Shown in pieces: positions 25,455-61,165 of a stretch of 64,000 nt of DNA (position 1 is its first letter; each line of letters starts with the position of its first letter). The notes beneath the pieces are model-generated. The model saw nothing but the letters and a program-made list of their open reading frames with translations, was not told the origin of the DNA and did not search any database. This DNA is from an uncultured Acidobacteriota bacterium (GTDB lineage: Bacteria; Acidobacteriota; Terriglobia; Terriglobales; Acidobacteriaceae): the NCBI GenBank assembly GCA_963812095.1, contig CAWETV010000001.1, positions 354,690-418,689 on the forward strand. The letters run 5' to 3'. The translations under genes and the position numbers were made by a program.

Positions 25455-25503
25455 CAGTCAACAGTTGTCAGCGGTCAGTCAACAGTTGCGAGTGGTCAGT
25501 TTT
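25455..25503. repeat. Tandem heptamer array (CAGNNNN)x7
   Basis: cagtcaa cagttgt cagcggt cagtcaa cagttgc gagtggt cagtttt, directly after the icd stop. Small GGGCTT(T/C)AGCCC-type hairpins follow (25505-25660). Confidence 0.8.
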
Positions 25504-25739
25504 GAAGGGTACGGGCTTCAGCCCGTACATTGGTTGAGTAAAATCATCGTGGGTCACGGGCCGCGGATAGAGTCAATCAAAGAGGCTTTGTAACAAGGGC
25601 ACGGCTTTAGCCGGGCCGTAAGCGTCGCCGAACAAGAGCGGGCTTTAGCCCCTGAAGATTTGTGAATTGGCGCAGGCTGGAGGCTGCGAGCCTGCGGTTC
25701 TTGCAATCAGCTTTAGAAATTGAACGAAAGGGAGAAGAC

Positions 25740-26666
25740 ATGCGGAAGAAAGTCAGCATTATCGGCGCCGGCAACGTGGGCGCCACAGCGGCGCACTGGA
25801 TCGCGGCCAAGGAATTGGCCGATGTGGTGCTTGTGGATGTTGTGGAAGGCGTCCCGCAGGGAAAGGGTCTGGACCTGCTGGAAGCGATGCCGATCGCAAA
25901 ATGCGATGTGAGCGTGGCCGGCTCCAACGACTACGCGGCGACGGCTCACTCCGATATCGTCATCATCACCGCGGGCATTCCCCGCAAGCCCGGCATGAGC
26001 CGCGACGACCTGCTGCAAACCAACTTCAAGATCATGAGCGACGTGGTCTCGAAGGTCGTGGCGCAGTCGCCGGAGTCGATCCTGATCATCGTCTCCAATC
26101 CGCTGGATGCCATGGCGCAGGCCGCCTACCGCCAGTCGGGATTCAACCGCGAGCGCGTCATCGGCATGGCCGGCGTACTCGATTCGGCGCGCTTCCGCGC
26201 CTTCATCGCCGCAGAGCTGAACGTGAGCGTGGAGAACGTCACGGCCTTCGTGCTGGGCGGCCACGGCGACACCATGGTGCCGCTGGCGCGGTATTCCACG
26301 GTAGCCGGCATCCCGATCACTGAACTAATTGCACCCCAGCGGCTGGCGGAGCTGGTGCAGCGCACCCGCGACGGCGGAGCCGAGATCGTGAAGTACCTCA
26401 AGACCGGCAGCGCCTACTATGCGCCCTCGGCAGCCGCGGTGGAGATGACGGAAGCGATTTTGAAGGACAAGAAGAAGATTCTGCCCTGCGCCGCCTACCT
26501 CGAAGGTGAGTACGGAATCTCCGGCTACTACATCGGCGTGCCCTGCAAGCTGGGCGCGGCCGGCCTCGAGCAGATCGTCGAGATCAAGCTCACGGAGGAA
26601 GAAGACGCCGCGCTCAAGAAGAGTGCCGAGGCCGTCAAGGAGCTGTGCGCGGTGATCGGCGTGTAG
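25740..26666 (+). CDS. mdh: Malate dehydrogenase (LDH-like family)
   Basis: [18 protein letters not shown]...[20 protein letters not shown]...IVSNPLD...[17 protein letters not shown] lies upstream of ATG 25740. Confidence 0.95.
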
Positions 26667-26670
26667 GACT

Positions 26671-26712
26671 TAGCTTCTAGCTCCTAGCTTCTAGCTGCTA
26701 GCTCCTGGCTCT
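26671..26712. repeat. Tandem heptamer array (TAGCTNC)x6
   Basis: tagcttc tagctcc tagcttc tagctgc tagctcc tggctct, starting 5 nt after the mdh stop. It is the inverted partner of the array at 26892-26936. Confidence 0.85.
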
Positions 26713-26891
26713 TGTTTCGCAACTGCCGGCCAGTTGGTTGCTGCGAGAGAAAGCTGGAAACTAATGGCCAGTGCCGTGACGGCATGATTCGGTAATGACC
26801 AGGATGTAGCGCCGGTCTCCAGACCGGCTGTCGTGCGGGCGTCCACGCCTGCACTTGCCCGGAGCAATTACCAAATTACGCGGTCACGGTA

Positions 26892-26936
26892 CTAGAGGCT
26901 AGAAGCTAGTAGCTAGAGGCTAGAAGCTGAAAGCTG
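26892..26936. repeat. Tandem heptamer array (CTAGNAG)x6
   Basis: ctagagg ctagaag ctagtag ctagagg ctagaag ctgaaag. Its reverse complement is (CTNCTAG)n, which matches the 26671-26712 array. It ends 10 nt before the phoU stop. Confidence 0.85.
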
Positions 26937-26945
26937 TCCTCTCCG

Positions 26946-58327: not shown

Positions 58328-58368
58328 CCTTGCATTTTAAACGCAGCGAGTTCGATTTGCAATAATCA

Positions 58369-60514
58369 TCAACTCGCCCTCCCCAGCGCCTCCTTGAGTG
58401 CCACGGCACTCGTCACCGGCGGCAGGCAGGTGCGCCCGAGGCAGACGAGCGCCCATGCTTCGGCTCCCTCGGGGGCTGGCGCCTGGAGCAGAGTTTCTTC
58501 CAGAGCTTCAGGGATTCCGCCCGGCACAAGCTGCGAAGGGGCGATGCGGAGAACGGTCTTGTTCACGGCGTAACCGGCGACGGCCGCTGCCTCAAGCCGC
58601 TCTGCCTCCGGCCCCGAGCCCACCACGGCCACCTGCACCGGATCTCTGAGCAGCCGCTCCAGCGCGAGCGCATAGCTGCCCGCGTAAAGGCCCAGGTGCT
58701 CCGCGATGCCTGCAAAACCGGCCAGCGTCTTCTCGGCGATCTCGCGATATTCGCCGGCGGCCACTTAAAGCTTCAAGCCGCAGCAGGGCCGCCGCGGCCG
58801 TAGGATTGCCGGCCGGCGTGGGCGCATCCTGCAAGGGCTTGCGCCGCGCCACGAGCGCCCCCAGCGGCGCGCTGTCGCAAGTGTCGAAGAAGCCCCCCGC
58901 CCCGCTGTCATAAAAGCGCGCGATCATGGCGTCGGCGATCTTCACGGCGGCCCGGTAATGCTCCATTTTGCCGCTTGCCAGCCACCCGTCTACGCAGGCG
59001 AGAACGGTAAACGCATAATCGTCGAGCACCCCTGCCGGGCGTTTCCCTGGCGCTGACGCGGCCGCGCCCTGCGCGCTCCCGGGATAGGAAATCACATGGC
59101 TGAGCGCCGATTCCCCGTCCCAGGCCTCGGCCAGCAGGCGGTTCAGGGTCAGCAGCGCGAAATCCCGGGCCGTGTCCATTCGCAGCACGCGCGCCGCCTC
59201 CAGGTACGCGGTCACAGCCATCGCATTCCAGCCGGTGTAGAGCGTCCGGTCGATAAATGGCGTGGGGCGCAGCGCGCGCGCGGCCAGCAGTTCCTCCCGT
59301 GCCCGGTCCCGCAACTCTGTCAGACCGGCCCCGCCGTCGGCCGCCATCTCCTCGATGGGATGATTGACATGCAGCACATTCTTGGCGGGGTTGTGGTGCA
59401 TATCGCCCAACTCGCCGATGTCCCAGTAGAGGCCCGCAAATTGCAGTTCCTCCCCGTCCAGCACGGCTTTCGCTTCGTCCAGAGTCCAGGTGAAGTAGTC
59501 GCCGTCGTCGTCCAGGCCCACGTCGGCGTCCTGCGAGGCGTAGAAGCCGCCGCGCTCGCGGTCGGTCATGGCCGCATCGAGCCAGCCGACGATGTCGCGC
59601 GCAGTCTCGCCGAAATCCGGCCGTGCCAGGCTCTGGAAGCCGTGCACGTAATTGCGCAGCAGCTCCGTGTTGTCGTAGAGCATCTTCTCGAAGTGCGGCA
59701 CCAGCCAGTGCTCGTCCACCGAGTAGCGATGAAATCCGCCGGCGAGTTGATCGTAGACGCCCCCGTGCGCCATCTTCTCCAGCGTCACGGCAAAGGCCTC
59801 GCGCGCCTGCTCATCGCCGCGGGTCAGCAGCAGATCGAGCGCCGCCGGGTGGGGAAACTTTGGCTGCGAGCCGAAGCCTCCGTGGCGCGGATCGAACTGG
59901 CGGAGCATGGAGCCGGCGATCTTGTCGACGAGCGCCAGGGAAAGCTCGCCGCCGCCGGCGCCGGTGAAACTTTCGTTTTGCTCGACAGCGGCCATCACGC
60001 TGGCTGCGGTCTCCAGCGCTTCCTCGCGGCGCTCGCGCCAGACCTCGGCCATGGCCGTGAGCACGCGCGGGAAGCCGGGCCGACCGTAACGGTCTTCAGG
60101 GGGTAGATAGGTGCCGCCGTAATAGGGCCGCCCGTCGGGAGTGAGGAACGCCGTAAGCGGCCATCCCCCCTGCCCGCTGATCGACGAAACCGCCGACTGG
60201 TAGCGCGCATCCAAATCCGGCCGCTCGTCGCGGTCCACCTTCACGGCGACAAACTCCCGGTTGATCAGCGCCGCGATCTCTTCATTTTCATAAGACTCGC
60301 GGTCCATCACGTGGCACCAGTGGCACCACACCGCGCCAATGTCGAGCAGCACCGGCTTGTCCTCGGCCTGTGCGCGGGCAAAGGCCTCCGTGCCCCAGGG
60401 GTGCCACTGCACCGGCTGGTGCTTGGCCGAGCGCAGGTAAGCTGAGGATGCATTTTGAAGCTGATTCGGGCTGGAGTTCAGCGAAGAAGCATCATGCATG
60501 GGCTGAGGATACAC
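58369..60514 (-). CDS. Thioredoxin-domain (DUF255) / six-hairpin YyaL-like protein, frame interrupted by a 1-nt indel near 58760
   Basis: N-terminus: ..[62 protein letters not shown]. After ..[10 protein letters not shown](SG) the conserved continuation [17 protein letters not shown]... reads in the 58369-58764 frame. The start is GTG 60514 or ATG 60499. Confidence 0.85.
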
Positions 60515-60550
60515 GGACGGCGGCTCATCGGGCCAGACGGAGGCGGAGAA

Positions 60551-60607
60551 GGGATCAGGGACTAAGGGACTAAGGGACTAAGGGACTAAGGGACTGAGGG
60601 ACTAAGC
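60551..60607. repeat. Tandem octamer array (GGGACTAA)x~7
   Basis: gggatca gggactaa gggactaa gggactaa gggactaa gggactga gggactaa. The last unit contains the TAG stop of the GNAT gene. Confidence 0.9.
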
Positions 60608-61102
60608 GGCCTCAAGCGGCTTCGCATAAACAAGGGCGGCGCGGTGGCGAGCGTAGTAGTGCTCTTCCCTGCCCCGGCGCGCGTAGCCTCGGCGTTCGTA
60701 GAGACGGATCGCGGCGGAGTTCTCCGCATCAACGTGCAGCCAGATGGATCCGGCGCCGGCGGAACGGGCGGAATCTTCGATGCGCCGCAAAAGCTCGGCG
60801 CCAATGCCGCGCCTGCGGAACTCAGGCGCGACCTCCACGGTCTGGATGTAGGCAGCGCGCGGCCCTGTCTGCGGCTCCCCTTCCCACTCGACAATGGCGA
60901 ATCCGGTCAATTTCCCATTCTCTTCCGGGTTCCCATCTGCTTCCGCGTCCCCATTCTCTTCCGCAATCCAGGCTGCGGAGTCGGGGCCGATGACGATGCT
61001 CCGCATGTACGCGCGGGAGAAGCGCAAGGGCGGCTGGAAGCAGATCTCCTCCACCGCGTAGATCGCGGCGAAGTCGGCGGGCTGGTAGGGGCGGTAGAGC
61101 AT
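60602..61102 (-). CDS. GNAT-family N-acetyltransferase (RimI-like)
   Basis: ..IQTVEVAPEFRRRGIGAELLRRIEDSAR..GAGSIWLHV...N..A..LYE..GY is the acetyl-CoA binding R/Q-x-x-G-x-G/A motif. It contains an in-frame 18-nt x3 repeat (60912-60965) encoding EENGDA/EADGNP/EENGKL. Confidence 0.8.
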   Translation of the reverse strand: MLYRPYQPADFAAIYAVEEICFQPPLRFSRAYMRSIVIGPDSAAWIAEENGDAEADGNPEENGKLTGFAIVEWEGEPQTGPRAAYIQTVEVAPEFRRRGIGAELLRRIEDSARSAGAGSIWLHVDAENSAAIRLYERRGYARRGREEHYYARHRAALVYAKPLEAA

Positions 61103-61106
61103 CGAT

Positions 61107-61165
61107 CAGGTTTCAGGTATCAGGTTTCAGGTGTCAGGTTTCAGGTGTCAGGTGTCAGGTGTCAG
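61107..61165. repeat. Tandem heptamer array (CAGGTNT)x8
   Basis: caggttt caggtat caggttt caggtgt caggttt caggtgt caggtgt caggtgt cag, starting 5 nt upstream of the GNAT ATG. Confidence 0.9.

Follow-up and report, generated by a model that had tools for sequence, protein, structure and literature searches.

This analysis concerns a set of short tandem arrays, most of them built of 7-nt units, that lie between genes in a 64-kb stretch of contig CAWETV010000001.1 (64,000 nt; hereafter the window) from an uncultured Acidobacteriota bacterium. The NuoD protein encoded in the window is 78–86% identical to Acidobacteriaceae and Terracidiphilus proteins and, judged by its sequence, the host is a Terracidiphilus-like member of the Acidobacteriaceae; a look-up by the exact NuoD sequence gave no hit. 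Gene identities were taken from NCBIfam/Pfam profile matches. An earlier note on this DNA, made from the letters alone, had pointed out the arrays and grouped their units; Tandem Repeats Finder returned a match at each of its positions, the weak one near 39840 included, and the unit families it gave agree with our direct reading (CCCTATT/GCCTATT, CAGTTCN, GGGACTAA, CAGGTNT and TAGCTNC/CTAGNAG). At four sites the span returned by the program (35327–35372, 39168–39204, 47517–47563 and 54482–54518) is slightly shorter than the one given below. Thirteen sites have a period of 7 (or 14 or 21), with 2.2–8.6 copies per array, and one further array has a period of 8. The window has 14 arrays of period 7, 8, 14 or 21, whereas 30 shuffled versions that preserve its dinucleotides had 0.4 on average and 2 at most. 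When intergenic DNA was shuffled gap by gap, 0.1 arrays were expected and 13 observed. Arrays occupy 12 of the 42 intergenic gaps. None is found in bases 1–24000 of the window, where ∼18 kb is taken up by two giant open reading frames (ORFs).

Arrays between cistrons of the nuo operon number five. The operon is on the minus strand and begins with nuoA (39942–40313, Pfam match), followed by nuoB (39211–39825), nuoC (38509–39159), nuoD (37252–38424), nuoI (36565–37182), nuoH (35373–36560), nuoJ (34805–35305) and, onward to 27904, nuoK, nuoL, two nuoM genes and nuoN. A weak, degenerate array of GAGCCNG-like units with period 7/14 (39839–39878) lies 13 nt ahead of the nuoB start, the nuoA stop being at 39942. 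The nuoB–nuoC spacer contains five GGCAUUA/GGCAAUA/GGGAAUA units (39165–39204), separated from the nuoB stop by 6 nt and from the nuoC start by about 5–8 nt. Two arrays adjoin each other at the nuoC–nuoD junction. One is a post-stop array of 3.4 AGGCAAU units (38494–38517), which includes the nuoC stop (TAG, 38509–38511) and the final three to four nuoC codons. The other is a pre-start array of 8.6 NGAACUG units (38431–38490), which ends 6 nt ahead of the nuoD ATG, with its last unit merging into the Shine–Dalgarno GGAG. The nuoD–nuoI spacer array (37202–37248) starts 3 nt past the nuoD stop and consists of a regular part, (AGGGAAU)4 at 37222–37248, and a degenerate part from 37202; a Shine–Dalgarno sequence (AAGGAG) and a TTG start follow. 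Finally, the nuoH–nuoJ spacer array (35326–35372), which begins directly after the UAA stop of nuoH, has a G-rich mRNA sequence with (AAUAGGG)3 followed by AACAAGGG / ACUGAGGG units, and its seven GGG tracts make up a G-quadruplex motif.

Outside the nuo operon, similar arrays adjoin genes on both strands. The plus-strand gene icd (24044–25444) is followed, 9 nt past its stop (25442–25444), by a post-stop array of period 21, or 3 × 7, with 2.2 copies of TCAGTCA ACAGTTG TCAGCGG (25454–25500). This array, which lacks a partner arm, reads as TCAG-type on the strand of its gene and is succeeded by a GC-rich hairpin at 25508–25529. Next on the plus strand, mdh (about 25662–26666) has 5.9 TAGCTNC units (26671–26711) 4 nt past its stop. 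On the minus strand, phoU (26946–27740) is followed 10 nt past its stop by units that read CAGCTTY/TAGCYNC in phoU sense (26892–26935). The mdh and phoU arrays are complementary to each other (88% identity) and obey the same orientation rule; they constitute the only inverted pair of the window, with the mdh array as arm 1. The remaining genes considered here are on the minus strand, except for mscS. A pre-start array of 7.3 NGAACUG units (44863–44913) ends 3 nt ahead of the ATG of a hypothetical ORF (44398–44859), with no Shine–Dalgarno in between. The post-stop array of a gdhA-like gene (47563–48822) occupies 47500–47563; the stop codon (UAA, 47563–47565) forms its first, degenerate unit, and (ACAGGGA)2, (AUAGGGA)4 and further units follow, giving a G-rich mRNA segment with a G-quadruplex motif. 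An AAUAGGG-type array (54480–54518), G-rich on the minus strand, is situated between two divergent genes, 53951–54388/54433 on the minus strand and an mscS-like gene on the plus strand (54557–55567), and is at least 38 nt from either start. The octamer array, with 7.4 copies of UUAGUCCC in gene sense (60549–60606), includes the stop of a GNAT gene (UAG, 60602–60604) and lies 34 nt ahead of the start of a DUF255 gene (58592–60514); it is the only array of the window with a G-quadruplex motif that is C-rich on the mRNA. The GNAT gene itself (60602–61102) is preceded by 8.6 NACCUGA units (61106–61165) that end 3 nt ahead of its ATG, again with no Shine–Dalgarno. Upstream of that array is pfk (61215–62357).

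As the earlier note stated, the arrays keep close to starts and stops. For eleven to twelve of the 14, the nearest start or stop codon is 0–10 nt away; the arrays at 39839 (13 nt) and 54482 (at least 38 nt) are exceptions. Arrays come within 0–4 nt of the nuoH, nuoD and mdh stops, and those of nuoC, gdhA and the GNAT gene fall within one, also as noted before. Enrichment at the ends of coding sequences, for which a statistical check had been proposed, was assessed in a set made up of the window and 80 related loci. In this set, arrays lay a median of 7 nt from the nearest gene boundary, versus 22.5 nt when each array was placed at random within its own gap; 57% of arrays lay within 10 nt of a boundary, versus 28% under this null (maximum of 200 simulations, 37%). 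Short gaps alone therefore do not account for the bias. Period counts came from 160 related loci totalling 2.2 Mb, of which 88.7% is coding. There, 301 of 381 arrays (79%) were mostly intergenic, and nearly all repeats with a period divisible by three were coding. By period, intergenic arrays numbered 0 (6 nt), 196 (7 nt), 37 (8 nt), 7 (9 nt), 2 (10 nt), 1 (11 nt) and 56 (14 nt). Individual related loci of about 20 kb carried 0–9 arrays. The arrays are non-coding and, because they lie inside operons, almost certainly transcribed.

Array orientation follows the adjacent gene. On the sense strand, post-stop arrays are YAG-type (TCAGNNN, TAGCTNC, YAGGGAN), and pre-start arrays have the complement, CTRA-type (NNNCTGA, GNAGCTA). 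Post-stop arrays were G-rich in 67 cases versus C-rich in 2, and TCAG/TTAG-type in 38 versus CTGA/CTAA-type in 4; for pre-start arrays, 46 were CTGA/CTAA-type and a single one TCAG/TTAG-type. In the window, TAGCTNC-type units, read in gene sense, come after both mdh and phoU, which lie within 300 bp of each other on opposite strands. Validity of the rule for genes on both strands indicates that it tracks transcription, not replication. Of 87 stop codons, 28 kept the phase of the array core, versus 12.4 expected (p = 2e-5), and another 22 were off by one position. In pre-start arrays, start triplets occurred at 1.6 per 100 nt on the sense strand versus 3.4 on the antisense strand, and stop triplets at 9.6 versus 5.1.

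Where two arrays share a gap, they tend to pair. Neighbouring arrays in one gap were inverted complements in 47 of 67 cases; permutation gave a mean of 4.8 and a maximum of 12. Almost all of these pairs (44 of 47) lie between co-directional genes, and in 44 of the 46 whose downstream gene runs in the same direction, the leading arm is of the YAG type. Facing positions of the two arms form Watson–Crick pairs in 89% of cases. Two loci, L100 and L105, differ in both arms together, with CAGTTCN/NGAACTG in L100 and CAGTGNN/NNCACTG in L105. Terminal inverted repeats with a stem of ∼20 bp or more are represented in the window by the mdh–phoU pair alone and in the related loci by the 47 pairs. The predicted fold of 26660–26950, which spans the mdh–phoU pair, has a free energy of –149 kcal/mol, versus –104 for shuffles (z = –8). 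Solo arrays are predicted to be unstructured, with z-scores from +0.1 (nuoH–nuoJ) to +1.4 (nuoD pre-start array) relative to shuffles, and no hidden partner arms were found in the nuoC–nuoD, nuoD–nuoI, nuoH–nuoJ, GNAT or ORF 44398 gaps.

In five relatives (L023, L049, L144, L146 and L048), the loop of the nuoD–nuoI hairpin holds an ORF of ∼120–145 aa. The loop ORFs of L023 and L049, whose modules have 413–424 nt between the arms, match TIGR02436/PF05635, the four-helix-bundle family that includes the proteins of 23S rRNA intervening sequences (IVSs); the loop proteins of L144, L146 and L048 are 65–70% identical to that of L023 (tblastn). Look-ups of homologues led to further sites. At nuoD–nuoI, the PF05635 gene (L023:11176–11691; L049:9154–9623; also L144, L146, L048 and L161–L168) is flanked by units CAGTGRT or CAGTTGT. 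Three more sites are in Acidobacteriota: nadA–DUF2203 (L169:2961–3455; CAGGGAT), atpH–atpA (L185:1186–1824; GTGRTCA) and macB–macB (L188:1153–1597; CAGGGRT). In Xanthomonadaceae (Xanthomonas, Stenotrophomonas), the gene is found at accB–accC (L179–L184; L179:1429–1872) with the unit GGGAATC, the repeat studied by Rehm et al. In Bacteroidaceae, it occurs at araD–araA (L192:1138–1623; TTGACAA) and between genes for an aminotransferase and DAHP synthase (L194:1171–1649; TGACAAT). Thus at all seven independent sites examined, in Acidobacteriota, Xanthomonadaceae and Bacteroidaceae, the PF05635 gene lies between inverted arms and between co-directional genes. The flanking arms were complementary at 17–20 of 21 positions in 11 of 11 loci tested, above all 200 shuffles, with an autocorrelation peak at period 7. 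At every locus tested, Tandem Repeats Finder placed period-7 arrays on both sides of the gene (at L169, on the upstream arm only). A structure is available for one four-helix-bundle protein of this kind, XCC0516 (PDB 2GSC). This arrangement recalls the 23S IVS of Coxiella, a 428-nt element with a 28-bp terminal stem and an ORF of the PF05635 family, which is excised by RNase III (PMC4990558). No paper linking PF05635 or S23p to heptamer repeats was found in the literature searched.

Array copy number is stable. Since the best match in a metagenome scan for strain-level relatives of the window had only 82% protein identity, close pairs among the related loci were compared instead. For locus pairs 92–99.9% identical, copy number was the same in ∼20 array comparisons with alignable flanks, with just two substitutions; a single difference, of one unit, was seen between the near-identical contigs L161 and L164. 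This bears out the earlier view that these are not ordinary microsatellites. Nor is copy number hypervariable in the manner of phase variation, and the arrays, outside reading frames, have housekeeping genes as neighbours (icd, mdh, nuo, gdhA, pfk) rather than surface or virulence genes. Turnover is by modules, which are replaced, gained or lost as wholes at 92–94% identity. At the nuoB–nuoC junction, many species have an overlapping TGATG, and others have arrays of unrelated units. At nuoD–nuoI, L019 (11140–11400) has the hairpin module tandemly duplicated, including the first 9 nt of nuoI; L046, 93.5% identical to L019, has hardly any array there.

Bacteria have been known to carry tandem heptamers since 1990. 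In that year Mazel et al. reportedly described the short tandemly repeated repetitive (STRR) sequences of cyanobacteria, dispersed tandem heptamers in intergenic and intercistronic positions, which have mainly been used as fingerprinting targets; we know of no gene-relative orientation rule or hairpin pairing described for them so far. The arrays studied here can be securely assigned to this class, as the Acidobacteriaceae version of heptanucleotide long simple sequence repeats. Like the STRRs, they are tandem heptamers between genes and cistrons, and the units TTGTCAG and CCACTGA, known from intergenic regions of Nostoc (PMC2408588), are present in both. According to Mrazek et al. 2007, as quoted in two later papers (PMC4679880, PMC4692102), heptamers are the most abundant long simple sequence repeats in many bacteria and are in excess in large genomes of non-pathogens. 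The phenomenon itself is thus already described, and what is added here is the rule of orientation, the formation of inverted pairs, the constancy of copy number between close relatives and the PF05635 association. The earlier note knew of no described function for such arrays; none has indeed been established, but the arrays as such had been reported (PMC4692102, PMC4679880).

Two of the described systems come particularly close. Rehm et al. 2015 found GGGAATC arrays in Xanthomonas and GGGGAYT arrays in Nostoc to be intergenic and no more than 50 bp away from a start or stop codon, with some extending over stops; they were mostly transcribed, were not tied to surface genes, and included 70–75 inverted pairs per Xanthomonas genome (PMC4692102). 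Our arrays share with these the period of 7, the intergenic bias, the proximity to starts and stops with stop overlap, G-richness of the coding strand downstream of genes, numerous inverted pairs, length and sequence that differ between species at conserved positions, and the lack of a link to surface or phase-variable genes. They differ in that one 64-kb window has many unit families, most of them not quadruplex-capable, in being mostly solo, and in belonging to Acidobacteriota. The PF05635 gene between the paired Xanthomonas arrays at accB–accC was not noted by Rehm et al.; it was found in the present analysis. The other system is that of the TAACTGA arrays of Beggiatoaceae, cyanobacteria and Bacteroidetes, which end a few nt upstream of start codons, often with no Shine–Dalgarno (MacGregor 2015, PMC4679880). 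Here the unit is near-identical (NAACTGA/NGAACTG), is likewise forward, ends 1–6 nt ahead of starts, often in the absence of a Shine–Dalgarno, and occurs inside essential operons as well. In Beggiatoaceae, however, there is essentially one unit and inverted pairs are rare (one reported), whereas the pre-start arrays here are half of a two-orientation system with varying units.

Resemblance to other element classes is more partial. With the Coxiella 23S IVS the paired arrays have in common terminal inverted repeats, a stem of at least 28 bp in that element, a loop of ∼400 nt with a PF05635 ORF, and an essential transcript that is spared (PMC4990558). Unlike it, they reside in the operon spacer of an mRNA rather than in rRNA, their stems consist of tandem heptamers, and the pair of the window is empty. 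Repetitive extragenic palindromes and bacterial interspersed mosaic elements (REP/BIME) and miniature inverted-repeat transposable elements are also small non-coding repeats in intergenic or intercistronic DNA that form mRNA hairpins and vary between close relatives. But REP/BIME units are imperfect palindromes of 20–40 nt, and our solo arrays lack self-complementarity and fold no better than shuffles; moreover, our units are tandem rather than single palindromes, and the loops differ from copy to copy. Neither a target-site duplication nor a transposase was noticed, although duplications were not searched for systematically; inverted arms are present, and loops vary by site and species. A 7-bp target-site duplication as the source of the arrays was ruled out, the arms being inverted rather than direct. 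Eukaryotic foldback transposons have long terminal inverted repeats of short tandem sub-repeats, and most copies are non-coding with a few enclosing genes. This resemblance is one of architecture, in another domain of life and at another scale, with no evidence of homology. The arrays are not CRISPRs, as had been recognized from the lack of spacers: the 7–8-nt units abut directly, where a CRISPR would have repeats of 23–50 nt and unique spacers of similar length, and there are no cas genes among the scanned flanking genes. A cyanobacterial source of the DNA, at first suggested by the STRR-like units, was rejected: the HIP1 octamer, typical of cyanobacteria, occurs just twice in the window and is not enriched, and the NuoD relatives all belong to Acidobacteriaceae. 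Complementarity of the units to the 3′ tail of 16S rRNA (TGATC and AGGTG matches) was dropped as an idea, in that it fits some units only; it was not tested formally.

Several explanations for these arrays were weighed. That they are assembly or sequencing artefacts, a concern of the earlier note, has virtually no chance of being right. Local frameshifts in nuoL and the second nuoM do indicate that the base-level accuracy of the window is imperfect, but arrays of this kind turn up at corresponding types of site in >100 independent assemblies, produced by different projects with different technologies and including isolate genomes (Acidobacteria bacterium AB60, complete Xanthomonas chromosomes), which refutes this explanation for the array class. 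A more serious candidate is neutral slippage, an idea attributed to Mrazek 2007 (quoted in PMC4679880 and PMC4692102), in which slippage favours 7-nt units and purifying selection leaves space only beside starts and stops. The one-unit difference between L161 and L164 fits, as do the higher-order periods of 14 and 21 within arrays and the many orthologous junctions with an overlapping TGATG in place of an array, absences which also imply that the arrays are not required. Yet neutral slippage is at odds with the constant copy number across ∼20 comparisons, the strict strand polarity relative to genes, the boundary bias above the within-gap null, and the association with one protein family across three phyla. 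It also leaves aside that 70% of neighbouring arrays are inverted complements, versus about 7% expected. We consider it unlikely, if still worth keeping in mind.

Two functional proposals fare less well. G-rich arrays might act as G-quadruplex elements that fold, as RNA or DNA, just past stops and thereby influence how genes are transcribed or translated or how their mRNA decays, a role proposed for the GGGAATC repeats of Xanthomonas. A quadruplex motif (four or more runs of at least three G, with 1–7-nt loops) is present in the arrays at 35326, 37207, 47500, 54487 and 60551 and partly at 39165; intergenic motifs number 91 on the sense strand versus 12 on the antisense strand, 71 of them just past a stop; and quadruplexes of related units form in vitro (Rehm et al., PMC4692102). 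But over half of the arrays (CAGTTCN, TAGCTNC, CAGGTNT, GGCAATA) are incapable of this structure and still share the rules of period, position and orientation, G-rich units such as CAGGGAT also serve as an arm of Watson–Crick hairpins, and Rehm et al. found no role in gene regulation or other function. This makes a quadruplex role for the class quite improbable. The proposal made by MacGregor for TAACTGA repeats (PMC4679880), that a pre-start (NNNCTGA)n array substitutes for the Shine–Dalgarno as a binding platform for ribosomes or an RNA-binding protein (S1, a cold-shock protein or CsrA), looks rather improbable too. It has in its favour the GNAT gene (array at 61106) and ORF 44398–44859 (array at 44863), where the array ends 3 nt ahead of the ATG with no Shine–Dalgarno and the leader is predicted to be single-stranded, along with the match in unit and position to Beggiatoaceae. 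Against it, nuoD, nuoI and nuoB retain a normal Shine–Dalgarno after the array, and no candidate binding protein has been identified. Furthermore, orthologous genes in relatives have no array or a different unit, so no fixed binding motif is conserved.

The reading we favour, to which we would give about an even chance, is that paired arrays are the stems of IVS-like cassettes, either full, with the PF05635 gene inside, or empty, and that solo arrays are derivatives of such cassettes or local expansions. The paired arrays are read in this way because the same paired architecture encloses a PF05635 gene in relatives and in two other phyla. In position, arrays occupy the untranslated gap from a stop codon, often their first unit, to the next Shine–Dalgarno or start. 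According to this model, both orientations together would pair into a hairpin of 25–50 bp, bringing the upstream stop beside the downstream ribosome-binding site. The IVS family is cut by RNase III at the terminal stem in 23S rRNA, and an array cassette would likewise fold or be processed out of the mRNA. Tight operon junctions would accept such cassettes because the insert is folded, and perhaps cut, out of the message. Solo arrays may be empty or half derivatives, or local expansions, that persist as harmless leaders and trailers: poor in structure, purine- or G-rich, with few start codons and with many stops in all three frames. Boundary locking would arise because arrays fill all the space left free by selection, from stop codon to ribosome-binding site. 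The earlier note had guessed at RNA processing or a specialised insertion process. Its observation is confirmed and its interpretation partly supported: the paired arrays, as hairpin arms that in relatives enclose a 23S-IVS-type gene, fit these guesses, and the support is confined to them.

A number of points weigh against this cassette reading. Nothing here explains the period of 7. In the window, 12 of 14 arrays are solo, there is one inverted pair, and tblastn detects no PF05635 homologue, so the reading covers solo arrays by analogy. The PF05635 gene may have inserted into hairpins that were already present rather than brought them. Most inverted pairs come from two orthologous junctions, nuoA–nuoB and nuoD–nuoI; with a comparative set centred on one operon, the pairs are not independent events. 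Mismatches in the arms give no significant RNA-specific signal (33 G–U versus 25 A–C), so maintenance at the RNA level is not separated from maintenance at the DNA level, and the latter, for example by template switching at quasi-palindromes, could account for the pairing. Polarity is reversed at the Bacteroidaceae sites, where arm 1 is TGAC-type, and the orientation rule is therefore lineage-specific. Gene starts, moreover, were called with a simple home-made gene caller, a weak point. It is uncertain whether the PF05635 association is causal and whether solo arrays derive from cassettes. More tentatively still, bacterial heptamer arrays in general (STRR, GGGAATC, TAACTGA and those described here) might be the arms and the decayed or empty derivatives of a single, widespread family of IVS-like cassettes. 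Its autonomous form would carry a PF05635 gene, a relative of the 23S-IVS protein and of the Avd protein of diversity-generating retroelements. It would insert exactly between a stop and the next ribosome-binding site of co-transcribed genes, fold or be processed out of the mRNA, and encode a protein by which the 7-nt repeat is recognised or propagated.

The window and its relatives have several other features. GC-rich hairpins at 25508–25529, 25597–25620 and 25637–25656 (GGGTACGGGCTTCAGCCCGTAC, GGCACGGCTTTAGCCGGGCC and GCGGGCTTTAGCCCC) form one family and have relatives such as GGCACGACTTTAGTCGTGCC that recur intergenically in related loci; they look like a separate, REP-like repeat family. 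At ∼61170–61210 (minus strand), pfk has a strong terminator-like hairpin (GCGGGCCGCCCCUGGGCGGCCUGC then a U-rich run), and the GNAT array and start come directly after it. Among relatives, some nuo junctions have other inserts: ∼400 nt (L017, L043) or 485–592 nt (L054, L058) at nuoB–nuoC and 271–350 nt at nuoH–nuoJ (L010, L017). These inserts of 270–590 nt have room for small ORFs and no visible inverted-array borders. Two further dispersed intergenic repeats, GTCATCCTGAGCGA...GAAGGATC and TTCCCACCC(T/A)(T/G)GC...GGGGCACCC, occur in nuoH–nuoJ spacers of relatives (L005, L018, L019, L048; L006, L040, L058, L068). The frameshifts mentioned above are at 32880–33060 in nuoL and 30890–31230 in the second nuoM, with NuoL passing through three frames in ∼40 nt; they point to pseudogenes or to base-level indel errors of the assembly. 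A 24-nt repeat with a 6-nt sub-repeat, GCC/AAG-rich, lies at 36593–36669 (minus strand), where the nuoI C-terminal and nuoH N-terminal regions overlap, and probably encodes an Ala/Lys-rich tail as in NuoI orthologues. Within ORF 44398–44859, a 9-nt repeat (TTAGCGGAG × 8.7; 44513–44590, minus strand) encodes (A-N-S)n in the hypothetical protein of 153 aa; it is absent from the list in the earlier note. The stretch 44300–47500 is lower in GC (0.57–0.58) and contains a spr1629-family repressor/antitoxin-like gene (45288–46373) along with ORFs that have no assignment; with the arrays at 44863 and 47500 as its limits, this stretch may represent a small mobile island. The adjacent giant ORFs (3–14924 and 14926–18231, plus strand; ∼4970 and 1101 aa), which occupy the first 18 kb, have strongly negative GC skew and positive AT skew. 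The window has no transfer RNA or transfer-messenger RNA genes and no Rfam families at gathering score.

These data add Acidobacteriota as a further phylum with heptamer arrays, here at high density inside an essential respiratory operon, and the copy-number evidence portrays the arrays as stable rather than hypermutable. For gene callers and operon predictors, the practical consequence is that repeat spacers of 40–150 nt and small inserted genes are to be expected at otherwise tight junctions. If the PF05635 link is causal, an old descriptive puzzle would become experimentally tractable.

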